Below, piece by piece: positions 26,696-41,337 of a DNA stretch of 64,000 nucleotides (positions are counted from its first letter, which is position 1; every line of letters begins with the position of its first letter). Source of the stretch: Turneriella sp. (GTDB lineage Bacteria; Spirochaetota; Leptospiria; Turneriellales; Turneriellaceae); assembly GCA_965279515.1 (NCBI GenBank), contig CBDIID010000003.1:1184001-1248000 (forward strand), read 5' to 3'. Made by a program: the position numbers and the translations under genes. The notes beneath the pieces were generated by a model, which searched no databases, was not told the DNA's origin, and saw only the letters and a program-made list of their open reading frames with translations.

Positions 26696-28363
26696 TTAAA
26701 GGGCGCCCGTGAGCTGAATGAAGGTCATGAACGCATCGGCTTTGAAATCCACACCGCGCGCCGCGGCCACGGCATCGCCCGCGTGCAGGTAGCCGACGCC
26801 GATCCACAATGAAAAGTATGTCGAGAACGGCTTCATCCACACAAGATCAACTTCCTGATACAAATTGCGGTTAAGACCCGATCCTTTCGAATTCGTCGCG
26901 CTTTCGCTGGAAGCGCCCGTATTCGCAGCGCCGCTAATCGCATACCAGGCGTCCTGCGGTGTCGCTTTCATCTCATAAAAATAATTCAGGAGAAAGTCGC
27001 CCCACTTACCGCCTTCGTAATACAACGAGACCGAAGGGGAGAACAGATTTTTCATCCCCATGTTTTCCGAAATACCGTTGAAGGTATTCAGGTAGGGAAA
27101 ACCTCCGAAACGCGGCCCTGGCAGCGTCTGGAAGGTGTCGACCGTCGATCCGGTACGGTTAGCAGTGCCGGGTGTATAGAAAGCTTGCACGCCCGCGCGC
27201 AAATCATCAAACACCCTGTAGCCCGCCTGGGCGAAGTATAACTGCCCCGCGTAGGTGCGTTCGGTCGTCGCGGCAACACCCGACGCATCAGTATAGATCA
27301 CATCCGAAGCGTTGCCCGCCTGAAAGGCAGCCTCCAGGGTGAAGTCGAAGCTTTTACCCGCGGGTAGTTTATTATTATCGATCCGGTTCGTGAGGCGGGC
27401 ACCGAAGGTGTAAAGATTCGAGCGCTGCGTCGGCAGCGTCGCCGAAGAGATAAGCACATCGGCTGTTGCACAACCAGCCCCACCCGCAGCGCAGACAGTG
27501 TCGATCGCGGTGTTGCGGAAAATGCCGATCGCGTAGAGATCGAGCCATGCGATATCCATCTTGAGTGTGTTGTAAAGGCCGACGAGATACGAATCGCCCT
27601 GTGCGGCGCTTGTATTCGTGACGCCCCCGTTAGGTACGTTATTCGCCGCGGACGATGTGCCTTTCACACCGAAGAGATGGCTCGAGATCATATCGTTATC
27701 AAACTTAATCAGAATGCCGTCGTACGAAAGGCCACCGAACGTCCAGTTCGCGCTGCCGATCATGCGTCCGTCGCCGTAAGCAAGCACCTGACGACCGAGT
27801 TGTACCCCTAAACCCGAAACACCGACGTTGCGGAACTGCACATATGCCTCGCGCGCGCCGACGGAGCTCTTGCTCATTGCGTCGCCGTTGTTGAAGAATG
27901 CGGCCCTGTCATCACCGGTTTTCGCGCCCCCGTCGCCACCCCAGACTCGGGCATCCTGCAGCGTCACTTTGATTTCAGCATCTTTTGTTGGGTTTACAAG
28001 AAACCAGATCTGCGATGTCTCGAAAAAGCGATCTATCTTCTGCGAATTCGACGCGCTGAAGTTCAGATTGTCGCGGAACTCGCCCCGGATGCGCGAATAG
28101 AGGCCGATACGCATGATATCACCAATCCACAAGCGCTTATTGTTCTTCACATTCGCTGCCAGCGCAGGATCAATCAGCATCGGCCGCATTGCGTCTGCGG
28201 GTAGCCCCTTTTCGATGTATGGGCTCGCAAAAGGAGCATCTTCAGGCCGGACAACTTCCGGTGTCGCGGTCGCTTCTGAGGGCGCTGGAATATTTTTACT
28301 ATTCGGCGCCGCCCAAAGAGACGGCGCAAACAGCAGCAGTGCGAAAAAGCGCCGCATAATCAC
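26696..28363 (-). CDS. Alginate-export-family outer-membrane barrel (porin)
   Basis: Signal peptide; R.R.E.R.N, LQDARVWG, REAY, GRQ.L.YGD.RMIG...W and ..DG motifs typical of this family. Confidence 0.8.
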   Translation of the reverse strand: MIMRRFFALLLFAPSLWAAPNSKNIPAPSEATATPEVVRPEDAPFASPYIEKGLPADAMRPMLIDPALAANVKNNKRLWIGDIMRIGLYSRIRGEFRDNLNFSASNSQKIDRFFETSQIWFLVNPTKDAEIKVTLQDARVWGGDGGAKTGDDRAAFFNNGDAMSKSSVGAREAYVQFRNVGVSGLGVQLGRQVLAYGDGRMIGSANWTFGGLSYDGILIKFDNDMISSHLFGVKGTSSAANNVPNGGVTNTSAAQGDSYLVGLYNTLKMDIAWLDLYAIGIFRNTAIDTVCAAGGAGCATADVLISSATLPTQRSNLYTFGARLTNRIDNNKLPAGKSFDFTLEAAFQAGNASDVIYTDASGVAATTERTYAGQLYFAQAGYRVFDDLRAGVQAFYTPGTANRTGSTVDTFQTLPGPRFGGFPYLNTFNGISENMGMKNLFSPSVSLYYEGGKWGDFLLNYFYEMKATPQDAWYAISGAANTGASSESATNSKGSGLNRNLYQEVDLVWMKPFSTYFSLWIGVGYLHAGDAVAAARGVDFKADAFMTFIQLTGAL

Positions 28364-29958
28364 CCTTGCCGTGCGGCCGCCGGATGATCAGAATACGGTT
28401 TCAGGTGCTCTATGTTATCGAATGCCAGCCGGCGGCCCTCGGCGGCAAGGCTATGTTCGATATCGGCCAGTGCCGCCATCGACGTGTGGTCGATATAGTG
28501 CACGTCGGTAAAATCGATCGCGATCTGTTTTTCCGGCGGATATTTTTCGATTTTGTCAGTCAGTGAGAAAAGATTCGTGAAAATCAGCGAGCCGCTCGCC
28601 TTCATCGTCACGCGATCCGTTTCTTCTTTAACTTCTGTGCGCAATTTGAAGAACTCTTTCGCCTTCACACCCCGGATGACGAGAATCAGCACTTTCATTA
28701 CAAGACCGGCCGCAATACCGACCAGAAGATCTTCGACGAGCGTGACGATCAGTGTCGTGAGAAAGATCATTAGCTGCTCTATCCCGGCGTCAAAAGCATG
28801 CTTGAATTCTGAGGGCCGCGCGAGACGAAACCCGACGAGAATCAGAATGCCGGCGAGCGCCGCGTTCGGTATCAGGTGGATGACTTCGGGAATTAAGAAC
28901 AGGAAAAACGCGAGAAAGACGCCGTGAAAAAAATTCGACCACTGTGTCTTAGCTCCGTTCGAAACATTTGCAGAGGAGCGTACAATCTCGGCGATGATCG
29001 GCAAGCCGCCAATTGCGCCCAACAGTATATTTCCCAGGCCATTGGCGACAATCTCCTTGTTAAGGTTCGTCTGGCGTTTTTGGAGGTCGAGTTTATCGAC
29101 GGCGCTGGCGCTGAGCAGGGATTCGAGACTCGCGACGAAATAAATCGCGAAAATGGTAACTAAAGAAGCGGGCGAGAAAATCATCGAAAAATCAGGCCGC
29201 GGTAACGCTGCGATAATCGAAGCGGGCAGGGTTACGAGAAATTTTTCGTCCAGAGCGTATTCATTGCCCATGAAAAAATAATGGTGCGCATGCTGAAGAT
29301 CGAAAAAAACCCCCAATAGCGCCGCGAAGATCACGGCAACAAGGGGAGCTGGAATTCTCTTCAGGATTTTCCATTTTGCGAACAGGAAAAACACCATGAC
29401 AGCAAGCGATAAAAGTCCGATCGCGGCAATTTCAGGGTTCATCACCTTCAGGCTGTGCGGAACTTCAGCGTAGAGTCCCAGGGGTGATTTCGCGGCGGGT
29501 GTCACGCCCAGAGCAATATGGACTTGTTTGGAGATGATAATCACGCCGATTGCGGCGAGCATGCCATGGATGACATTCACGGGAAAAAGCGCCGCGTAGC
29601 GGCCCAGTTTCAAGACCCCCGTGAGAATCTGAAATCCCCCCGCGACAATCATTGCGGCGAGAAATCTCTGGAACCCGGCTTTGATGTCGCCGAAGGCCAG
29701 GCTGTCAATACCGTGCTGCACAATGACTATAAGCCCCGCCGCAGGGCCGTGGATTGCCACGTTGGCGCCGGAGATGCGGGAGACTAAAATACCGCCGATC
29801 ACTGCAGCGATGAGCCCTGAGACCGCGGGTGACAGCGAGCCATTGCCAATCGAGGCACCGGCGATGCCGATGCAGAGCGGTAAGGCAATGAGCGACAGAA
29901 TGAAGCCCGCCGTGAGGTCGGACTTCCAGTGATTTTTCAGATCCGTTAAAGCTTTCAT
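28360..29958 (-). CDS. SulP/SLC26 anion (probably bicarbonate) transporter with STAS domain
   Basis: DL.AG....LIALPLC.GIA, GPAAGL, SLESLLSA.AVDKLD, EIVRSSAN and STAS YIDHT motifs; stop overlaps the porin start. Confidence 0.92.
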   Translation of the reverse strand: MKALTDLKNHWKSDLTAGFILSLIALPLCIGIAGASIGNGSLSPAVSGLIAAVIGGILVSRISGANVAIHGPAAGLIVIVQHGIDSLAFGDIKAGFQRFLAAMIVAGGFQILTGVLKLGRYAALFPVNVIHGMLAAIGVIIISKQVHIALGVTPAAKSPLGLYAEVPHSLKVMNPEIAAIGLLSLAVMVFFLFAKWKILKRIPAPLVAVIFAALLGVFFDLQHAHHYFFMGNEYALDEKFLVTLPASIIAALPRPDFSMIFSPASLVTIFAIYFVASLESLLSASAVDKLDLQKRQTNLNKEIVANGLGNILLGAIGGLPIIAEIVRSSANVSNGAKTQWSNFFHGVFLAFFLFLIPEVIHLIPNAALAGILILVGFRLARPSEFKHAFDAGIEQLMIFLTTLIVTLVEDLLVGIAAGLVMKVLILVIRGVKAKEFFKLRTEVKEETDRVTMKASGSLIFTNLFSLTDKIEKYPPEKQIAIDFTDVHYIDHTSMAALADIEHSLAAEGRRLAFDNIEHLKPYSDHPAAARQG

Positions 29959-29973: not shown

Positions 29974-31806
29974 CTATTTTGCAAACGCCAATTTAACATA
30001 AGTACGCATCAGAGTTACCGCATTCAGGACAAACGCCGCACCAATAAAGATTGTTTCGACGGCAAAGTTCTCGGCGCTGAAATGCAGCAGTAAGTCTTCG
30101 CCGAAAAAGGTCGGGCTGAACGTGAAGCCCGACATCCACAGAATGCCAATAAAAAATATGTTCGTTGGCACACGATGCGACAGCGCCGCCCCTGCGTATT
30201 CGGTTCTGCGGACGCCCTCGGGTATGTTTCTCAGTCCGATGTAGGCAATCAGGAAGCCCAAAGTAATTCCGGTAAAATAGACGATACTGTAAATTGCCGC
30301 CCCCGGGTTTACGTAGATTGCTGAAATTCCTTTGAAGACTGTGGAGAGAAAACACATCCACAAAACCCGCGTCGGCCTGACACGGATGCCCAGCGCCGCC
30401 AAGGCGACAAAAACAGCCGATGTCCCGAGTACCACGGCGCAGATGGTATTTATGTTATCACCCAGGTAGGGTCGCCCAAAACTAACAATGAGTAACAATA
30501 CCGCCAGGATATTGATAAATATAAACGGAGAAAACGCGGGCAGAATAAACGCCGCTGTTTTTTTCAGGATATTCCACATGCCATGAACCAGAGCTTCGGC
30601 ATAACCTTCGGCGAATGAAAAGGCGAAATACCAGCCCCGCACCTTCTCGCCAAAGAACCGTCTGCTCAGATGTGCAAGCCCGCCGTTCAGCAACTCGCCC
30701 TCCGCCTGCTGACGCAGGTACAGCACCATGATCGAAGGTGATGCCAAAAGCTGGTAACAACGCAACGCCGCGTTTCCGAGAAAATGCAGCATGGCAATTT
30801 CGCGCTGCCCCAGCGCCAGTTCGAGAAACATGAGCCCAACCTGCGCCGCCGAGGCGTAGCCGATCTGCCCCTTAATGTTGGATTGCGATTGTTGCGCGAT
30901 ACTGGCAGTAATGGCGGTAAACAGGCCGATGCTCCCGACAATCCAGGGGATAAAGGGGACAGCCGTCCACAGCGGATAAAGGCGGATCAGGAGGTACACC
31001 CCGGCATGGATCGAAAGCGCACCGTAAAAGATGGCGCTCGACGGCGTCGGACCTTCCATCGCACGCGGTACCCAAAAAGAAAACGGATACTGCGCCGATT
31101 TACCCATCGCAGCCAGGACAATCAATAATCCGCCAATGGCAAAAAAACCCATATTGGCGCTCACGAGCCCCGGATCCAATGCCTTATCGGCGTATTGTAA
31201 AAAGAAGAACTCATTTCCTAGTTTGTGAAAAAGCCACGCTTCGAGAAAGAGCCCCAGGTCGCAGAAACGGTAAATCGCATAGGCACGCAGGCTATTCCTG
31301 CCCGGCTGCAGGCGAATGCGGTAAAAACCGATTAGCAGAAACGACGAAATCCCGACAATCTCCCAGCCCGCAAAGAGCATGTCAATCGTCGCGGCCAGCG
31401 AGACCAGGGAAATGCCGGCGACAAAGAGGAATAAACTTGCAAAGAAACGACGGTAGCCGTCTTCACGGTGCATATAACGCCGCGAGAACATGAGGACGAG
31501 GCCGGTGAGCACACCGATGAGCACCTGGAAAGCAACCGAATACTTATCGAGCAACAGCAGAACCTTGAAATGATAATCCGCGGCGCTCAGCAGGTTACCG
31601 TATGAGATTTCGAGGGGCTTGAAGCCGGAGTAAATAAACAATCCCAGAAAAGACAGGGTGAGGATGCCGTTAATACAATTCCCCAGGAGTACAAAGCGCG
31701 AAATAAACCTCTCGTCGCGCCTGGGAGATACAGCGATCAGCACGGTAAAAACAAGGGGATAAACAACCAGCGCCGCTGCAATGTAGCGAAATAACAACTC
31801 AACCAT
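29974..31806 (-). CDS. dabB: DabB-type NuoL/MrpA-like membrane subunit of the DAB inorganic-carbon pump
   Basis: YMHREDGY.RF, WEIVGISSFLLI, YR..D and KSAQYPFSFW.PRAMEGPTPSSAIFYG motifs; ATG 31806 overlaps the dabA end. Confidence 0.88.
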   Translation of the reverse strand: MVELLFRYIAAALVVYPLVFTVLIAVSPRRDERFISRFVLLGNCINGILTLSFLGLFIYSGFKPLEISYGNLLSAADYHFKVLLLLDKYSVAFQVLIGVLTGLVLMFSRRYMHREDGYRRFFASLFLFVAGISLVSLAATIDMLFAGWEIVGISSFLLIGFYRIRLQPGRNSLRAYAIYRFCDLGLFLEAWLFHKLGNEFFFLQYADKALDPGLVSANMGFFAIGGLLIVLAAMGKSAQYPFSFWVPRAMEGPTPSSAIFYGALSIHAGVYLLIRLYPLWTAVPFIPWIVGSIGLFTAITASIAQQSQSNIKGQIGYASAAQVGLMFLELALGQREIAMLHFLGNAALRCYQLLASPSIMVLYLRQQAEGELLNGGLAHLSRRFFGEKVRGWYFAFSFAEGYAEALVHGMWNILKKTAAFILPAFSPFIFINILAVLLLIVSFGRPYLGDNINTICAVVLGTSAVFVALAALGIRVRPTRVLWMCFLSTVFKGISAIYVNPGAAIYSIVYFTGITLGFLIAYIGLRNIPEGVRRTEYAGAALSHRVPTNIFFIGILWMSGFTFSPTFFGEDLLLHFSAENFAVETIFIGAAFVLNAVTLMRTYVKLAFAK

Positions 31807-34363
31807 TTTGCACCTTTGCTTTTTGAATATAACCCGGTGCAATGTTGTCGCGCATACGGCGATAGGCAGAGATTGAATCCGGAAAGACCTGCGGCCCCTT
31901 TCCACCGATACTCAGTTTTTCAAAAGCACCGCGCCGGTACCAATAGTACACGTCTTTTACGTAGTCATAAATACAGAATTTCACCCATTCCTTTTCAATC
32001 CATTGCATGACTGCCGGATTGCCCTCAAGGACTTTTAACACGATGTCCTTTCGCTGCTCGACCAGAATAAAGAGCCGCAGCGGATCATGAATTTCGATCA
32101 TCTGCTCGGGCAGCCCGGTGCGCAGATCACCCTCCGCCCCGTTGCCGACGCCAAGCAGCGAAAAAACATTATGCGGTAATTTGGACCCCGCGCCAAAAAC
32201 CGAATTGTCCATGCGCGAGAATAGGTACTCGAGATTGATACCCGCACACACCGGCACGAGCGGCGTCAGAATTCCGTTCAGAATCTTTCCGTCTTTATCG
32301 GTCCGGGGATCGTAGGAATTAAAAAAGGCGCGGCGATCCAGAAAAAGATTTTCAGAGAGTGAGCGACGGGCGACAATCGCCAACGCATTCGTCGCATGGT
32401 TATACTCCGGCCTCGGTTCGAAGAGCATCTCGGTGCGTAGGCGTACTTCCTTCATGGCCTTTTTGAAACCATAGGGAAAATTCAGAATGGCAAATCGGCG
32501 TGTCCGTTCATGTGCGTTATGTTCCAGCGCGCTGTTGAATATCGCATTCAGCTCTTTCAGCTGATCTGAATGGTGTGCCATGACATCGTCTTCGTCCATG
32601 AAAATAATCTCGTCGCGGGCCGTATCGTGGATCGCACCGATAAAGCGCGTAGAAAGGGGAATATCGATGCCCTCGGCTTTGAGTAGCCGTCGTACATCGT
32701 CGCGGTTAGCCATCGTCGCGTACGTGCGTGCGTTGACGAACCCTGGTCTTCCTGAGCAGGCGCCGCAATCGTATGCGGCGAAGTATGGATTGTTTGTACT
32801 ACTCGACCCATGGCCGACAACCGCGACCAACGCCGCAAAATTGTGGGTTAAGCCGATTTGGCGTAAAACCCGCGCCACGCGTTCCGCCATTTCGCTGACG
32901 GTATAACCCTCGAAGTAACCGTCCTGCGGTGCCTCCCCATCTGGCCTCTCGTAGTGCAGATCGGTTTCATCATCATGTGCGGCAAACGAACTCGCCGTAG
33001 CAAATGTGCGCGAGGGTTTTGCAATCGATATTCCGAGTCTGACGAGGGAAAAAAGACCGAAAACGAGAGATATCAGCCAGCCTAAAACCAGGTTATTCGC
33101 ATAACGATGCCAGAAATTCATCTCAATGCGGCTGGCGGGTAATTTTCTCTTATGCTTCGCTATGCCGCGGATACGGTGACGGGGTGTAACCGGCACCGGA
33201 CACTGCTTGATTGAAATGGCGTCATAGGGTCCCTGATAGACGGCATCTATGGCAAAGAAGCCGGGTGTCGCAAACGTTTCCACGCCATCCGTAAGTTCTT
33301 CGAGATAACGCCGGAAAGAAGACTCCCTGTCATCGATGCAGAATAGCGCCTGAAATTTTGTTTTCCCTTCTTTAGAAAACCGTCCGCGCTTCTGACCTGC
33401 GTTTACCCTGATGGCGCGCAGTGTATCGAGATAAAAACTCAATTCCATCGCCTCAAGCCAAAGGCGACAAATCTTCTCACCCTCGTTTTCGACCGGCGCG
33501 TGCTCTGCAAAAAACGCGGTATTGGTATTGACCAGGTCCAGTTTGGATTTCTCCCAACCGCCTGCGGTGGCACGTTCCGTAAAAATCGCCAGATAAAGAG
33601 CGACGTATTGTACAAGTTTGATCAGGCGCGGATAACTCAGGGATTCCGGGCGGTCTTCTACCTGCGCAATAAGCCCCGACCAGCCGCGCGCAGCCATGAG
33701 CACTTCGAGAAGAAAGGTACGCCTGTCCGCTTTTTCTGGTAACAGCTTTTCCAGGCAATCTGCGACAATGTCTTCAGGGGATTTTTTGCGTATCTGGTCA
33801 GTTAAGTGTGCGCTTAAGGCGTGGATTTTCCCCGTGCGCAACTGTTGGCGCAACGCCGACCAGAAGTCGAGTTGACCTTCGCCTAACGAGATTGCCGCCA
33901 TCCCCTGGTCCAGGTAACTGGCGACCAAACGGAAAACATGCGGATGAATTTGTTCCTCAAGAACAATACCGCATTGCTGCTTGATTGAGAACATGTATCC
34001 GTGCCTGCGAAAACCGGGACGGTGTTGTACATCCGCCAGTTCTCTGTAGAGCATCCGGTGGCGCACTTCCGCCGTGTCGCCACCTTCAGAAGCTAAGACT
34101 AAATTCAGCGCCTCATCACTGATCTTGCCGCTTTTAAACAATGCCCGGAATTCGGAAACCGGCAGGTATTCCCGCGCACCGTAGAGGCGCGAGGCCTGGC
34201 GGATGGATTCATCGAAGCTGAGGTTATGTTCCTGGAAGGCATGCAGCGTATTATGGTGGATAAAATCCTTAATCGGTCCCTGTGACGGCAGATAATGGCG
34301 GATTTCCTTTAGAATTGTCGTAATATCCGTTGGTGCTTCCTGCTTTTTTGAATTCTTTTTCAT
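31799..34363 (-). CDS. dabA: DabA (DUF2309/UPF0753), beta-carbonic-anhydrase-like subunit of the DAB pump
   Basis: FIHHNTLHAF, zinc-ligand motifs FCIDDRE, GHGS.S.NNP and DCGAC, plus HDT..D, RPE, RR.F..SYD, INLEY.FS..D, GDLRTGLP.Q and H.PLRL. Confidence 0.93.
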   Translation of the reverse strand: MKKNSKKQEAPTDITTILKEIRHYLPSQGPIKDFIHHNTLHAFQEHNLSFDESIRQASRLYGAREYLPVSEFRALFKSGKISDEALNLVLASEGGDTAEVRHRMLYRELADVQHRPGFRRHGYMFSIKQQCGIVLEEQIHPHVFRLVASYLDQGMAAISLGEGQLDFWSALRQQLRTGKIHALSAHLTDQIRKKSPEDIVADCLEKLLPEKADRRTFLLEVLMAARGWSGLIAQVEDRPESLSYPRLIKLVQYVALYLAIFTERATAGGWEKSKLDLVNTNTAFFAEHAPVENEGEKICRLWLEAMELSFYLDTLRAIRVNAGQKRGRFSKEGKTKFQALFCIDDRESSFRRYLEELTDGVETFATPGFFAIDAVYQGPYDAISIKQCPVPVTPRHRIRGIAKHKRKLPASRIEMNFWHRYANNLVLGWLISLVFGLFSLVRLGISIAKPSRTFATASSFAAHDDETDLHYERPDGEAPQDGYFEGYTVSEMAERVARVLRQIGLTHNFAALVAVVGHGSSSTNNPYFAAYDCGACSGRPGFVNARTYATMANRDDVRRLLKAEGIDIPLSTRFIGAIHDTARDEIIFMDEDDVMAHHSDQLKELNAIFNSALEHNAHERTRRFAILNFPYGFKKAMKEVRLRTEMLFEPRPEYNHATNALAIVARRSLSENLFLDRRAFFNSYDPRTDKDGKILNGILTPLVPVCAGINLEYLFSRMDNSVFGAGSKLPHNVFSLLGVGNGAEGDLRTGLPEQMIEIHDPLRLFILVEQRKDIVLKVLEGNPAVMQWIEKEWVKFCIYDYVKDVYYWYRRGAFEKLSIGGKGPQVFPDSISAYRRMRDNIAPGYIQKAKVQNG

Positions 34364-34465: not shown

Positions 34466-34816
34466 TTAGAGAGCAGGAGGGGCGCGCGAGTTTGCTAGAG
34501 AAAGGAGGTCTTTTTGGTGGAGAATCAGGGACGATGCCGAAAAATCGTTGCGAATGAAGTGAATTTGGGGTAAATGGACCGCGTCGGCGGTGACATAGAC
34601 ATCTGCATCGGACTCACCGTCGCACTCTTCACCGTTTTCAGCAAAGAGGCCATCGACCTTGGCCAAGTTCTGCGCAGGGGGTTGGGTAGAGAGCATCAGG
34701 GTTGAAGATGCAGAGGTACAATACGCCGAACCTTCGATGCTACCCAAAAAAATGAACGCAGCCAGCACCAACACAAATCGTCTGAGATATTGGCCGTGCT
34801 TTGCCTTGTGAATCAT
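34466..34816 (-). CDS. Putative RAPP-type ribosome arrest leader peptide (116 aa) upstream of dabA
   Basis: Basic n-region plus hydrophobic FVLVLAAFIFLG, an acidic patch, and C-terminus NSRAPPAL*. ATG 34816 is the first start downstream of the predicted promoter. Confidence 0.7.
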   Translation of the reverse strand: MIHKAKHGQYLRRFVLVLAAFIFLGSIEGSAYCTSASSTLMLSTQPPAQNLAKVDGLFAENGEECDGESDADVYVTADAVHLPQIHFIRNDFSASSLILHQKDLLSLANSRAPPAL

Positions 34817-34826
34817 CTCTTTTAAC

Positions 34827-34855
34827 ATAGTAGTAAATCGATCCGAATATGGCAA
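34827..34855 (-). promoter_or_regulatory. Sigma70-type promoter for the leader-dab operon
   Basis: TTGCCA (34855-34850) - 17 nt - TACTAT (34832-34827), 10 nt upstream of ATG 34816. Confidence 0.7.
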
Positions 34856-35097
34856 TAAAATCCGCAGGCAAATTTCGTGCCTGAGCTGCTTTCTGGGGTG
34901 GGCGGCAGATCGTTAGCGAACCTGCCCGATGAAAATGGAAAATGCTGAAATCCGGGAAAAGCGGGCATTTGCTCGTTCACGGCGTGATTTTTGCGACTAA
35001 AAATCGTGCAGCTTCTCTTGAGATTTCAGAATTTTGCACACCCTCCGCGCGCCCCTTTTTCCCTTTACCTGTACATGCTGCGCAGAAATCATACGCC

Positions 35098-37269
35098 ATG
35101 TCTTCGCTTGTCCGGTTTGCGTTCCGGTGGATTGCTTATTTTTCATCCTACGGTATAGCGGTGGCGACGTCGGCGGCGATCAGCTCGATACTCGCGATCT
35201 CCTTTGGTCTCTACTACGCCCGTGCGACGAATTTCCCGCTTTCGAATGCCATGCTGATCACCATCGCGATCGGCGCGGCGGTCGCCTGGATCGGCCATTC
35301 GGTGCAATTCGGTATTCTGAATAAAATCGGCTTCCCGGGTTTTACCCGCCCCGTTCTGGCAGTCAATCGTTTCATCACAGCCACCCCCGACCTTTCGATC
35401 AGACCCGATCTCAGGGAATCGGATTACCATGAGCTCTTACGCGCGCTGACGATTATTCCACTCACCAATGCATTTACCGCGGTACTTTCAGTACAGCTGA
35501 TCTTCGGGGCGATTCTCGTCGCCGCAGAGCTCTCGATTAAATTCGAGCCCTACCACTATGTGCAGGGCCTGATCATGGACCTGATGTTTTCTTTTATCCA
35601 TGGCGGCTTCTGCCTGGTGATCGGCGAAATCGCCACAGGGGGCATGCGCGCCGAATGCAAGCGCATCATGCACGAAAAGGGGATCGCCTTCACGGACCGC
35701 GCTGTCACAACAGTGCGGCTGAAACTCGCCTTCTTCATCACACTCTTTCTCGTAACGCTTTACGTCGCCGCAACCCTTGTCTACTACAACCGCGACAATT
35801 TGCAGGCAATCCTCATTTTCACACTCATGGCGACCGTTGCCGCGGTGCTGATGGCCTACATGATCTTCTACCTGATCTACAGTGCGCTCAAAGATATCGA
35901 AGGCGCTATGGACGATTTAAAATCCGGCGGTTCGGGACTTATTTTCACGAAGTCGATCGACAGCGAATTTGTCAAGGTCGCGACCGGAATCTCCGACGCC
36001 GCACGCACAATCAAAGACTACCAGGCAAACCTGGAACAGAAGATCGACGAGCGCACGCGCGAGTTGCAGGAAAGTTTAGGGAATGTAAAGGCCCTGAAGG
36101 GCCAGCAAGACGGCGATTATTTTCTCACCTCGCTGCTGCTGAAGCCGTTAACCGGAAATTACGCCAACAACCGCCAGATCAAAGTCAGTATCTTCATCCG
36201 CCAGAAAAAAAGTTTCGAATTCAAAACGAAAACGAACGAAATCGGCGGCGACATCTGCCTCGCGCACTCGATCAGGCTGCGCGGGCGGGATTACACCCTG
36301 TTCTTAAACGGCGACGCAATGGGCAAATCGATGCAGGGCGCCGGCGGATCGTTGGTTCTGGGCGCCGTCATGCAATCGATTGTCGAGCGCACGAAGCTCT
36401 CGCCCAAAGAACAGGTACTTTATCCCGAGCGCTGGCTGAAGGCGGTGTTTCTCGAACTGCAAAAAACTTTTGAAAGTTTCGACGGTTCGATGTTGATCTC
36501 GGTGATTATGGGTCTTGCCGATGAGAAATCCGGCTTTGTCTATTTTATCAACGCCGAGCACCCCTGGTCTGCAATCTACCGCCAAGGCAAGGCGTTCTTT
36601 ATCGAAAACGACCTGACGCTCAGAAAGCTCGGCACGCTCGGCGTGGCGATGGGCATCCGCGTGCAGACGTATGAGATGAAACCCAACGACACATTCGTTA
36701 TCGGCTCGGACGGTCGCGACGACCTGGTTCTAGGCACCGACGAGACGGGCACCCGCATCATCAACGAAGATGAAAATCTGTTTCTGCGCATGCTTGAATC
36801 GGGCAAAGGCAATCTCGAACAGACCTATAACCTGTGCAAAGAGACAGGGGATATTTCAGACGACTTCTCACTCATCTCGCTTACCTACCTGCCTGAAATA
36901 GAAACACGCGACATGCGCTTCGGCATCGGGCAAAAAATCAGCGAAGCGCGTGCCTTCGTCGCCAAAAAGAATTACGCAGCAGCAACCGAACTTTTGGAGC
37001 ACGCCTACGAGGTTTCGAAGGATAACCTTCACGTCGCACGCGCGCTCGCCCATATCTATTACAGGGCGGGCAAGCTGGCAGAAGCCGCGCGCTATTTCGA
37101 CCTCTATAGCGAAGAGAACCCGGGCGACACACAGACGATCGGGGTATTGGGATCGCTGTTATTGAAGCTGGGTGACACCGAACGCGCGGCCGACGTATTA
37201 ACCCGCCTCAAGATCCGCAACCCGCACGATGAGAAGATCGCCAGCCAGCTGGCGAAAATTTATAAGTAG
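35098..37269 (+). CDS. Membrane SpoIIE/PP2C-family phosphatase with C-terminal TPR
   Basis: N-terminal TMs and coiled coil; QQDGDYFLTSLL, IGGD, GDAMGKS, NAEHP, GSDGRDD and SDD motifs; TPR-like helices. ATG 35098 preferred. Confidence 0.9.
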   Translation: MSSLVRFAFRWIAYFSSYGIAVATSAAISSILAISFGLYYARATNFPLSNAMLITIAIGAAVAWIGHSVQFGILNKIGFPGFTRPVLAVNRFITATPDLSIRPDLRESDYHELLRALTIIPLTNAFTAVLSVQLIFGAILVAAELSIKFEPYHYVQGLIMDLMFSFIHGGFCLVIGEIATGGMRAECKRIMHEKGIAFTDRAVTTVRLKLAFFITLFLVTLYVAATLVYYNRDNLQAILIFTLMATVAAVLMAYMIFYLIYSALKDIEGAMDDLKSGGSGLIFTKSIDSEFVKVATGISDAARTIKDYQANLEQKIDERTRELQESLGNVKALKGQQDGDYFLTSLLLKPLTGNYANNRQIKVSIFIRQKKSFEFKTKTNEIGGDICLAHSIRLRGRDYTLFLNGDAMGKSMQGAGGSLVLGAVMQSIVERTKLSPKEQVLYPERWLKAVFLELQKTFESFDGSMLISVIMGLADEKSGFVYFINAEHPWSAIYRQGKAFFIENDLTLRKLGTLGVAMGIRVQTYEMKPNDTFVIGSDGRDDLVLGTDETGTRIINEDENLFLRMLESGKGNLEQTYNLCKETGDISDDFSLISLTYLPEIETRDMRFGIGQKISEARAFVAKKNYAAATELLEHAYEVSKDNLHVARALAHIYYRAGKLAEAARYFDLYSEENPGDTQTIGVLGSLLLKLGDTERAADVLTRLKIRNPHDEKIASQLAKIYK

Positions 37270-38984: not shown

Positions 38985-39075
38985 TGTAAATCAAAATTGA
39001 ACGTTTGTTCGAATTTTAAAGTTCAGAATGGCTTTGCCCGGCTGGCCAGACATACGAGCTGGCAGGTCACAGCGT

Positions 39076-41337
39076 ATGACCCGCATACAAATTACCTGTT
39101 GGATCTCCCTTTGCTCAGCCACACTTTCCTGTGGCTCGCTTCTCAGTGAATCAGAACGGATTCGGAACGCCAATGAAAAATCCGCTGGCTCCCCCGCAAA
39201 TCCCGGAGGTGCGCCGGCAGCCCCTGGTTTTGTGGCGACCCCCGCTTCGCCCGTGTCGGTTTGGGGCACGAATGGTACGGTGAACGCGATCGTCCGCAGC
39301 GGCAGTATCCTCTATGTGGGGGGAACCTTCACGGCCGTCGCGCCTAGTACAGGAACGGGAGCGGTTCTGGATACGGTTACCAGTGCGGCACCGACAGGCT
39401 CAGTAATAGCCACCATCAACGGTGGCAATGTCAATGCGGTTGCGCCGGACGGTTCGGGGGGATGGTTTATTGGTGGCACATTCACTCAAATCGGCACGGC
39501 GACACGTAACCGCATCGCACGCATCAACGCGGACGGCAGTTTACATCCGTGGAATCCCAACGCAGATAATACAGTGAATGCCATCGCCGTGGCGGGCTCC
39601 ATCGTTTACGTCGGCGGTAACTTCACTAACATTGGCGGACAGGCACGCAACAGGATTGCGGCACTCGACAGTACCAATAATGGAAATAGTGCCACCGCCT
39701 GGGACCCCGGCTCGAGCGCCCCGGTCAATGCATTGCTCGTGTCAGGCTCCGTCATCTACGCCGCGGGATCATTTGGTACCATCGGCGGGCAGACGCGTAA
39801 CGGCGTCGCCCAACTCGATACCCTGCTGGCTACGAACAATGCCACGCCATGGAACCCCAATGCCAATGCCGGGGCCAGTGCCCTCGCCCTATCAGGAATC
39901 ACCCTTTATGTGGGAGGAAGCTTTAGCAGTATCGGCGGGCAGGCACGTAACCGAATCGCTGCACTGGATACGACGGTGAATACCAATAATGCCACGGCGT
40001 GGAACCCCAATGCGAGCGCGATCGTGAGTGCGCTCGCAATATCGGGCACGACAATCTATGCCGGCGGCGCATTCACAACCATCGGCGGCCAGACGCGCAA
40101 TAATATCGCGGCACTCGATGCCACCGTTAATACCGGTAATGCCACGGCATGGAACCCAAACGGTAACGGCAACGTAAACGCCCTTGCTGTCTCCGGTACG
40201 ACTCTCTATACGGGCGGCTCTTTTACGACAATCGGTGGACAAACACGCAACAAAATTGCTGCACTGGATACCACCATCAACACCAACAACGCCACGGCAT
40301 GGGACCCCAACGCGGCCGGCGATGCCAACGCGCTTGCCGTGTCGGGCTCAACAGTATACGCAGGCGGTTCGTTCCCGTCTATCGGCGGAAAGTTGCGTAA
40401 CAATATCGCTGCTTTTGATCTGACCACGGGGGCTGCCACCGCCTGGGACCCCAATGCGGGTGGCACGGTGAATTCTCTCGCAACATCCGGATCTACGGTT
40501 TATGTCGGCGGGCAATTCACAACGATCGGTGGGCAGGTGCGCAACCGCATCGCCGCTCTAGACGCCTCGGTGAATACGAATAACGCCACGGCATGGGACC
40601 CCAACGCGAGTGCGAGCGTCATTGCGCTCGTGTTATCGGGTACAACTCTTTACGCTGCGGGCGCATTCGGCACGATCGGCGGACAGGGGCGCACGTGCAT
40701 CGCCGCCCTCGATACCACCATCAACACCAACAACGCAACGGCATTCAATCCGGGCGCCGATGCCGGCGTTACTGCGCTTGCGCTATCTGGCACGACGCTC
40801 TATGCGGGCGGGGCTTTCGGCAACATCGGGGGACAGGCTCGGAGTAACATCGCCGCTCTGGATACAACCATGAACACCAATAATGCAACCGCGTGGAACC
40901 CCGGTGCGACCGGCAACGTGGCAGCGCTTGCGGTATTGGGAACGACTATTTACGCAGGCGGCGCATTCGCGAGTATCGGTGGTCAGGCACGCAGCTTTAT
41001 TGCGGCCCTCGACACCACCATCAATACGAACAACGCGACGGCCTGGGATCCTGCTGCGACCATCGGGGTCAGCACCCTCGCCGTCTCCGGTACGACAGTG
41101 TATGCCGGAGGCGCATTCACGTCCATCGGGGGACAGGCACGCAACCACATCGCCGCTCTCGACACCACAGTGAATACGAACAACGCGACGGCATGGAATC
41201 CGAACGCCGACAATAATGTACTGGCAATATTTGTTTCTGGCAACACGGTTTACGCGGGCGGCGTTCTCGGCACAGTCGGAGGCCAAACACGGAATAAAAT
41301 TGCTGCCATCAATGCCTTAACCGGCCAGCCCTGGTGA
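39076..41337 (+). CDS. Surface lipoprotein built of about 14 tandem ~50-aa repeats (probable beta-propeller)
   Basis: Lipobox TLSC; repeat consensus V.ALA.SG.T.Y.GG.FT.IGGQ.RN.IAALD....NNATAW.P.A; ATG 39076 preferred. Confidence 0.88.
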   Translation: MTRIQITCWISLCSATLSCGSLLSESERIRNANEKSAGSPANPGGAPAAPGFVATPASPVSVWGTNGTVNAIVRSGSILYVGGTFTAVAPSTGTGAVLDTVTSAAPTGSVIATINGGNVNAVAPDGSGGWFIGGTFTQIGTATRNRIARINADGSLHPWNPNADNTVNAIAVAGSIVYVGGNFTNIGGQARNRIAALDSTNNGNSATAWDPGSSAPVNALLVSGSVIYAAGSFGTIGGQTRNGVAQLDTLLATNNATPWNPNANAGASALALSGITLYVGGSFSSIGGQARNRIAALDTTVNTNNATAWNPNASAIVSALAISGTTIYAGGAFTTIGGQTRNNIAALDATVNTGNATAWNPNGNGNVNALAVSGTTLYTGGSFTTIGGQTRNKIAALDTTINTNNATAWDPNAAGDANALAVSGSTVYAGGSFPSIGGKLRNNIAAFDLTTGAATAWDPNAGGTVNSLATSGSTVYVGGQFTTIGGQVRNRIAALDASVNTNNATAWDPNASASVIALVLSGTTLYAAGAFGTIGGQGRTCIAALDTTINTNNATAFNPGADAGVTALALSGTTLYAGGAFGNIGGQARSNIAALDTTMNTNNATAWNPGATGNVAALAVLGTTIYAGGAFASIGGQARSFIAALDTTINTNNATAWDPAATIGVSTLAVSGTTVYAGGAFTSIGGQARNHIAALDTTVNTNNATAWNPNADNNVLAIFVSGNTVYAGGVLGTVGGQTRNKIAAINALTGQPW

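Follow-up and report, generated by a model that had tools for sequence, protein, structure and literature searches.

Upstream open reading frames (uORFs) that end in RAPP or RGPP and precede diverse genes form an established class (PMC12992588). In that work, RAPP and RGPP were the two cores that stalled in all contexts tested, and proteomes avoided RAPP other than at leader ends. The earlier note on the DNA studied here had tied RAPP leaders to export and copper genes. Such leaders exist, but many other operons are also headed by RAPP uORFs (PMC12992588). SulP genes stand downstream in at least 15 rows of the RAPP uORF list (supplementary file 8 of PMC12992588), and about 5 of those 15 rows show an acidic run 41-54 residues before RAPP, as counted by hand. 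DabA, SulP, bicarbonate and carbonic anhydrase (CA) go unmentioned in the main text of that paper, whose top 30 RAPP downstream groups do not include SulP. No row with DUF2309/DabA downstream was found among the supplementary rows listed, in a search that covered part of the supplement. The available text of a paper on the leader CutF (PMC9973294) gave no match for carbonic, SulP or bicarbonate.

A literature search, with most subscription journals outside its coverage, returned no report of an arrest peptide controlling DAB, SulP or CA, and no description of a natural voltage-sensing arrest peptide. The earlier statement that no arrest peptide had been described on a carbon transporter stands in so far as none was found in this search; it needs amending in that the supplement of PMC12992588 already lists RAPP uORFs before SulP.

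DAB itself requires membrane potential, DabA requires Zn, and DAB1 includes a small accessory membrane subunit (PMC13144422). An mpsABC mutant of S. aureus had 18% of the wild-type potential in air and was rescued by 5% CO2 (PMC6689103).

A putative arrest leader heads the dab operon

The whole stretch of DNA that was analyzed (64,000 nucleotides [nt]) is called the window. On its minus strand, a 116-aa ORF (34466-34816) with the C-terminus NSRAPPAL heads the genes dabA-dabB-sulP-porin in a Turneriella-like spirochaete. The features are listed in the direction of transcription.

34827..34855, minus strand: sigma70-type promoter, with the -35 hexamer TTGCCA at 34855-34850, a 17-nt spacer and the -10 hexamer TACTAT at 34832-34827
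34466..34816, minus strand: leader ORF, a putative RAPP arrest peptide, with ATG at 34816, 116 codons and the stop codon at 34468-34466
34736..34777, minus strand: hydrophobic segment (residues 14-27), a signal peptide or anchor by its sequence, its pattern kept in the alignment
34601..34639, minus strand: acidic patch spanning E60-D72, at 41-53 residues upstream of the first RAPP proline, a candidate voltage, pH or cation sensor
34466..34546, minus strand: rut-like C-rich, G-poor tract, beneath and just behind the putative stalled ribosome
34475..34486, minus strand: RAPP codons, invariant at the peptide level with varied codons; stall geometry from PMC10951233
34364..34465, minus strand: intergenic region of 102 nt, with the dabA Shine-Dalgarno (SD) sequence GAGGAGG at 34373-34367
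31799..34363, minus strand: dabA, 854 aa, PF10070 (E 6e-206), ATG at 34363
29974..31806, minus strand: dabB, NuoL/MrpA-like, 610 aa, overlapping the dabA stop
28360..29958, minus strand: SulP/STAS anion transporter, 532 aa, a probable bicarbonate transporter, below the BicA cut-off
26696..28363, minus strand: outer-membrane barrel of the alginate-export family, 555 aa, the last gene of the operon, after sulP in relatives too

The promoter TTGCCA-17-TACTAT, the 116-aa ORF, the RAPP codons at 34486-34475 and the 102 nt to dabA, all claimed in the earlier note, were found again at the same coordinates, as was the 10-nt distance from the -10 box to the ATG at 34816. By itself, the promoter hexamer match is at chance level (2 found versus 1.2 expected). 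Hexamers of the TTG(C)C..TA..(A)T type lie 7-12 nt before an in-frame ATG or GTG in 11 of 12 aligned upstream regions, locus L019 being the one that is unaligned at the hexamers. The database gene call P0121 starts the leader four codons earlier, at 34828, within the -10 box; the conserved spacing between hexamers and start favors 34816. Because the start codon lies 7-12 nt past the conserved promoter hexamers, the leader mRNA appears to be near-leaderless. A separate dabA promoter inside the 102-nt gap had been named in the earlier note as evidence against a leader, and a scan of the gap for same-strand promoter-like or terminator-like sites came up empty.

A basic N-terminus precedes the hydrophobic segment at residues 14-27. 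The leader has no match to a Pfam or NCBIfam family and, as claimed earlier, no CxxC. An AlphaFold model from 12 sequences had a mean pLDDT of 59, the N-terminal helix being the only confident part.

The four downstream genes overlap or lie 15 nt apart. The operon encodes a PF10070 subunit with a Cys2His Zn site and an Asp-Arg dyad, beside a PF00361 subunit. DabA residues C342, D344, R346, H518 and C533 are invariant in all 13 aligned sequences and match the Zn ligands and the Asp-Arg dyad of DabA2 (PMC13144422). DabA is about 25% identical to the DabA of three Leptospiraceae genomes. The source genome has one beta-CA domain only, fused to SulP. A genome search found no form I/II RuBisCO; its sole match was a 350-aa RuBisCO-like ORF, which may be form IV. 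Because form I/II RuBisCO is absent from the genome, DAB here is, judged by gene content, the bicarbonate supply of a heterotroph and not part of a carboxysomal CCM.

Upstream of the leader lies a divergent membrane-SpoIIE-TPR gene (35098-37269, plus strand), which is syntenic with the leader in most relatives and probably starts at 35098 rather than at 34942. Farther on, a 769-aa ORF (39028-41337, plus strand) consists of many tandem repeats of about 52 aa and probably encodes a surface protein.

The leader and its RAPP end are conserved

Across the 4.9-Mb genome, R[AG][PG]P terminates four non-overlapped ORFs in the size range 40-260 aa. Two of these four combine a hydrophobic N-terminus with a co-oriented gene downstream: the dab leader and a leader before a CusA-like RND gene. 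Among 20 family genomes, 14 contain dabA. Conservation of RAPP upstream of dabA in relatives had been proposed as a test in the earlier note, and a RAPP or RGPP leader heads the dab genes in 11 of the 13 other family genomes with dabA, the exceptions (G010 and G011) having dabAB without a leader. The leader was kept despite a change in gene order (L019) and a gene insertion (L018). In G014, it traveled with dabA to a position behind sulP and the porin gene. In G018, it still stands at the operon head, with an SPFH gene and a SulP-CaMKII_AD/SnoaL fusion gene inserted behind it. A second, internal dabA in G009 has no leader of its own.

Several side observations concern these loci. The SulP-CaMKII_AD/SnoaL (iota-CA-like) fusion is encoded at L018:1622-3463 (plus strand), where it lies with the SPFH gene between the RGPP leader and dabA; the CaMKII_AD/SnoaL domain type resembles that of iota-CA. 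In G009 (L020, L030), two dabA-dabB copies flank sulP and the porin gene, and the assembly breaks the first dabB into two ORFs. The DabA N-termini of L024, L025, L028 and L030 read DFIADN or DFVADN, versus the DFIHHN conserved elsewhere.

When a profile of the 12 leaders was run against 151 genomes of the class, the strong matches were the source genome and the 11 relatives, and there was no match in the six family genomes without dabA. Its three weak matches were a RAPP leader before an efflux operon, a CusA leader and one noise match. A protein search with the leader gave 14 matches, every one RAPP-ended. In the alignment of the 12 orthologues, which share 18-41% identity, R111, P113 and P114 are the sole invariant columns. 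Ten tails read RAPP and two read RGPP, with varying codons, and pS exceeded pN in all six leader pairs by a rough count. A basic n-region followed by a hydrophobic segment was present in all 12 leaders, as judged by hydropathy and not by a signal-peptide predictor. The gap between leader and next gene ranges from 62 to 132 nt.

A search with a single DabA query returned three genus-level loci only, and plasmid DabA matches were distant, the best matches listed being 27-34% identical. Among 30 SulP loci examined with 1.5-kb flanks, none showed a RAPP-type leader; the same was true of the three Leptospiraceae DabA loci, where only a RAPP-type tail was looked for.

These comparisons show the leader to be a real, conserved feature; by its features, it is a putative RAPP-type arrest leader outside DUF2946 and the Sec monitors. 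The arrest-peptide architecture named in the earlier note (signal-like N-terminus, linker, RAPP end) is supported by the conservation of RAPP/RGPP in the syntenic orthologues.

An acidic patch lies at a set distance from the putative stall site

The linker, which the earlier note described just as long, holds an acidic patch at a defined position. In all 12 leaders, the center of the most acidic 9-mer falls 45-56 residues (median, 51) ahead of the first Pro. The interquartile range of its position is 5, versus a mean of 27 in linker shuffles, and none of 1,000 shuffles was as tight; the genomes being related, this and the other shuffle, rank and count statistics overstate independence. Patch residues E63 and E68 are nearly invariant in the 12-orthologue alignment. 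Overall, the alignments showed conserved charge and position and no fixed ligand geometry. A CxxC occurs in 1 of the 12 leaders and is not conserved.

Described systems offer more than one meaning for such a spacing. In E. coli, an engineered five-Asp segment gave a dominant pulling peak at L+n of about 50, which was reduced by indole (bioRxiv 10.1101/310698); the peak was attributed to the membrane potential, which released arrest (bioRxiv 10.1101/310698; PMC6028853). Basic segments were likewise released (review, PMC6028853). Contact of transmembrane helices with the translocon begins at about 45 residues from the peptidyl transferase center (PTC) (PMC7886326). The CXXC of CruR sits 45 residues before RAPP, and the signal peptide of CruR is dispensable (PMC9426467). 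In MifM, arrest is supported by a segment located at the tunnel exit or beyond it (PMC6037786). Since the CruR CXXC and the MifM segment occupy the tunnel-exit position, a spacing of 45-50 residues is, by this comparison, a tunnel-exit position as well and does not single out voltage.

Acidic leaders with other tails precede further inorganic-carbon genes

In the source genome, 112 small ORFs with a signal stand directly before a co-oriented gene. When these were ranked by the charge of the segment 40-70 residues from the end, the dab leader was second most acidic (-5), and rank 1 (-7) was held by a PPP-tailed leader 42 nt before a SulP-CA fusion gene; this acidity window was picked from the dab leader, and the first rank of the SulP-CA leader alone is independent.

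G000:C3:817887-818267 (locus L088/L218), plus strand: SulP-CA leader, with a signal, a very acidic patch and a PPP tail, 42 nt before the SulP-beta-CA fusion gene

This leader is present in 9 of 11 evaluable genus loci (one further locus is incomplete and outside the 11), with the patch 42-49 residues before PP.

A metagenome scan with an alignment of the DabA clade as query yielded at least 709 confirmed stretches, of which the best 80 were kept. From the named members of the query alignment, we read these dab loci as Bacteroidota-like. A strict RAPP search found no RAPP leader in the best 80 of the at least 709 loci. Ten of the 80 had no upstream DNA; in 55 of the remaining 70 evaluable loci, a leader with a signal, an acidic patch and a non-RAPP tail was found (51 past a signal-plus-size filter, two of them doubtful, and 4 by eye). 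The inorganic-carbon link of the leader, a guess in the earlier note, is thus wider than guessed, with leaders before SulP-CA genes and metagenomic dab genes. In this best-80 set, 49 of the leaders, a number that leaves out three near-duplicates, two doubtful leaders and L155, share the tail P-[LI]-[YF]-[LI]-x4-[FIL]-[RL]-[IL] (an example is L100:4728-5075, plus strand, among L093-L172). Their patch lies at a median of 56.5 residues from the last residue, with a spread below that of all 1,000 shuffles. In L093, L098, L100, L103 and L134, sulP is divergent from dabA and a second such leader precedes sulP. Locus L131 has two PP-ending leaders before sulP.

In Leptospiraceae, loci L073-L076 (e.g., L073:2952-9630, minus strand) encode a six-gene membrane complex, which we take to be Hyf-like, with sulP as the last gene. 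Four of six operons of this Hyf-like complex plus sulP open with an acidic PPP-tailed leader, which hints that the complex may serve inorganic-carbon uptake.

Leaders before other genes served as controls. Eleven same-genus RAPP leaders before CusA-like genes contain an exact His/Cys domain and no patch (in the source genome, L032:8111-8638, minus strand, or G000:C3:1598110-1598637, without a Pfam or NCBIfam match). In a window of 38-58 residues, their mean charge was -1.4 (n=11) versus -4.1 for the dab leaders (n=12); the means for the SulP-CA leaders and the Hyf-sulP leaders were -5.4 (n=9) and -4.2 (n=4). In the metagenomic flanks of the best 80 loci, which reach 52% GC, a score of -4 was reached by 46 of 60 candidates before carbon genes versus 2 of 21 others, one of these two preceding the porin gene of a dab locus. 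Four Cys-rich leaders in these flanks have no patch and, by eye, a similar PPL[FY]xLY tail; in one case, the next gene encodes a TonB plug domain.

Leaders of carbon genes are not alone in having the patch, since three non-carbon leaders carry it. Two Cys-rich PPP leaders of the source genome score -4; they lie before a gene for MbnP plus a di-haem peroxidase gene (L232:3249-3656, minus strand) and before a TonB receptor gene (L232:8456-8824, plus strand), and are probably metal-sensing leaders. The third is a RAPP leader of G014 with a patch score of -5 (L233:6580-6933, minus strand), flanked by a TetR gene and by the AcrAB-TolC-type efflux operon that it precedes.

No hit near any curated cut-off was obtained when 57 leaders were scanned against Pfam and NCBIfam. 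The P-[LI]-[YF]...[RK]-[IL] tail, which occurs on carbon and Cys-rich leaders, is a candidate undescribed arrest motif. Its identity with a described 'ApdF' motif was rejected: the term is absent from the available text of PMC10987492, which gives Pro-stop tails only for the phylum. A literature search found no paper on the label HYC_CC_PP.

RNA elements suggest that the stalled state is the ON state

In the 60 nt before the RAPP codons, the skew of C over G is 0.43, a value equaled or exceeded by 0.4% of 2,222 gene ends. Across the 12 orthologues, the mean skew is 0.35 and the sum lies above all 2,000 synonymous recodings; taken one by one, 2 of 12 pass the 5% level, 11 of 12 are above 0.14, and one is without skew. 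The same trend was seen in the SulP-CA leaders (mean, 0.23) and the CusA leaders (mean, 0.28). Rho is encoded in the source genome. A rut-like tract at this place would fit the mode of CruR, in which Rho is blocked by the stalled ribosome (PMC9426467).

The RAPP codons may also act on the downstream SD sequence. Pairing of the RAPP codons with their own SD beat synonymous recodings (0 of 500 as good in sum, in the uniform and in the codon-weighted recoding alike), and own pairs beat mismatched pairs (313 of 100,000 permutations as good). When the full region was folded, the leader was the main pairing partner of the SD in 8 of 12 loci, the window not being among them, and masking of the leader up to the stall site cuts the predicted cost of SD opening in 11 of 12. 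In the window, no pairing of the SD with the RAPP codons is predicted, a ribosome footprint there is without effect, and 16.5% of 1,350 other SD regions pair as well as this SD. A single conserved anti-SD helix was rejected for the window on this absence of predicted pairing. A stable conserved attenuator hairpin was likewise rejected, with a fold z score of 0.12 versus shuffles and a gap without a terminator.

Together, the rut-like tract and the anti-SD codons probably point to a stalled ribosome that switches the operon ON. For the window, Rho seems to be the better supported of the two output elements.

Proposed mechanism and alternatives

We consider it very probable that a translated arrest leader controls the dab operon. 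In the account that we propose, a near-leaderless mRNA would be translated and the hydrophobic N-terminus would bring the ribosome to SecYEG. The ribosome would stall with RAP in the P site, as in ApdA, ApdP and CruR. The geometry of the stall places the acidic patch about 41-56 residues from the PTC, within the translocon, where the membrane potential would pull on its negative charge. At high potential and with free export, the chain would be pulled and the ribosome would finish and leave; the C-rich tract would then be open to Rho and/or the leader 3' end would pair with the dabA ribosome-binding site (OFF). Under bicarbonate shortage, carboxylation, respiration and potential would fall, the pull would weaken, and the stall would persist. 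A persistent stall would cover the rut tract and the anti-SD, and DAB, SulP and the porin would be made (ON). The sensed input would be the energetic consequence of carbon shortage and not CO2 itself. Acid pH, which shifts the proton motive force from voltage to delta-pH, may be an alternative input.

The whole account, in which a drop in membrane potential induces carbon uptake through an export-coupled arrest peptide, is tentative, and we put it not far short of an even chance. Membrane potential as the main input is a possibility to which we give about the same chance. In S. aureus, the loop between carbon and potential is physiologically closed, as seen from MpsABC loss and CO2 rescue (PMC6689103). 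Because DAB needs membrane potential, induction at low potential is partly paradoxical (PMC13144422). More broadly, and with more doubt, the leaders may form a class of natural voltmeters, in which a signal, an acidic patch about 50 residues from the stall and a lineage-specific tail were assembled repeatedly before DAB, SulP and CA genes and bicarbonate starvation is read as a fall in potential. The candidate tails of this class are RAPP/RGPP, xPPP, or P-[LI]-[YF]...[RK]-[IL] of the Bacteroidota-like genomes.

The position of the patch would also suit a ligand sensor like CruR or CutF. The patch would bind protons, Ca2+/Mg2+/Zn2+ or a cation-bicarbonate pair, so that the input would be local pH or ions and not voltage, and binding at the tunnel exit or in the periplasm would alter folding or export and hence the stall. 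It occupies the place of the CXXC in CruR, 45 residues before RAPP (PMC9426467), DabA needs Zn (PMC13144422), and CutF senses periplasmic Cu during export (bioRxiv 10.1101/2025.02.05.636593). In addition, the same-genus RAPP tail is paired elsewhere with a His/Cys metal module, which suggests that the middle segment is a swappable sensor. However, only the charge and position of the patch are conserved, whereas metal leaders keep exact His/Cys columns, and AlphaFold gives the patch region no confident fold; we regard a ligand sensor as rather unlikely. We judge it unlikely that the stall is a general export or insertion monitor of the SecM/ApdP/MifM type, which would report Sec/YidC capacity or, as bicarbonate feeds acetyl-CoA carboxylase, lipid supply, with the patch acting only in topology or at the ribosome surface. 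None of the downstream genes encodes an export factor, and the patch is strongly enriched before carbon genes (46 of 60 versus 2 of 21 flanking candidates in the best 80 loci); by eye, most of 14 antiporter and 14 cyo RAPP leaders showed a weak patch or none (PMC12992588). Such a monitor would nevertheless agree with the signal-plus-RAPP architecture, which resembles that of ApdA/ApdP (PMC10951233), with three of the four downstream products being membrane proteins, with the support of MifM arrest by residues outside the ribosome (PMC6037786), and with the patches in non-carbon leaders.

Two simpler explanations dispense with sensing. If the ribosome always paused, shielded the rut tract and opened the SD, the leader would be a constitutive coupling device that gives fixed expression. 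The rut-like and anti-SD features require merely a parked ribosome, a residue-specific sensor motif is not conserved, and the leader is lost in 2 of 13 dabA genomes. Yet the signal and the patch at a fixed spacing are kept across sequence-unrelated tails and are needless for a fixed pause, which makes such a device improbable. Very improbable is an ordinary small secreted DAB accessory protein or a chance ORF, in which RAPP would be irrelevant. DAB1 does have a small accessory membrane subunit (PMC13144422), but in the dab leaders the body falls to 18-41% identity while RAPP/RGPP alone is invariant, RAPP is avoided in proteomes save at leader ends (PMC12992588), and the leader ORF always lies directly at the head of its genes.

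Heterotrophs need bicarbonate for the carboxylations of lipid, nucleotide and anaplerotic metabolism, and dab-type leaders across spirochaetes and Bacteroidota-like genomes are a concrete candidate regulator of carbon uptake. If the patch is the sensor, these leaders would put to natural use a voltage pull on nascent chains that is so far known from engineered constructs, and membrane potential could be reported by a short genetically encoded element. The non-RAPP tail common to carbon and metal leaders in the Bacteroidota-like loci is a candidate new arrest motif.

Comparison with known systems

The encoded pump resembles DAB2 and MpsAB (PMC13144422, PMC6689103) in that its DabA has all Zn ligands and the Asp-Arg dyad and its DabB is NuoL-like. 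Unlike DAB2 and MpsAB, it belongs to a clade with the order dabA-dabB, adjoins sulP and porin genes, which we consider co-transcribed, and is headed by a leader.

The dab leader falls within the RAPP/RGPP uORF class of Fujiwara et al. 2025 (PMC12992588). As in ApdA, ApdP, ApcA and SecM (PMC10951233, PMC10987492), a small upstream ORF with an N-terminal signal, a variable linker and a C-terminal RAPP/RGPP is followed by a short gap to a co-oriented gene, with anti-SD potential. In contrast to SecM, ApdA and ApdP, the downstream genes are dabA, dabB, sulP and a porin gene and not those for SecA, SecDF or YidC. The positioned acidic patch also sets the dab leader apart from ApdA, ApdP, ApcA and SecM, with which no sequence homology was detected.

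CruR of Bordetella (PMC9426467) and CutF of Rhodobacter (PMC9973294) likewise have a signal, followed by a sensor segment that lies about 45-50 residues from a tail with RAPP or rich in Pro, and they control a transport operon, as the dab leader putatively does; the rut-like tract would fit the Rho logic of CruR, in which the stall means ON. The dab leader differs from both in having no CxxC, His motif or DUF2946 match, Asp/Glu at the sensor position, and an inorganic-carbon target. In the ESM Atlas, the nearest named clusters were DUF2946/DUF6769 and CzcI at 0.92, with few shared features, which serves as a lead only.

In the placement of its charge, the dab leader is like the LepB-D5-SecM force sensors (PMC6028853, bioRxiv 10.1101/310698), in which an acidic run lies about 50 residues from the arrest site, past a membrane-targeting segment. 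Those sensors, unlike the dab leader, are artificial constructs in E. coli.
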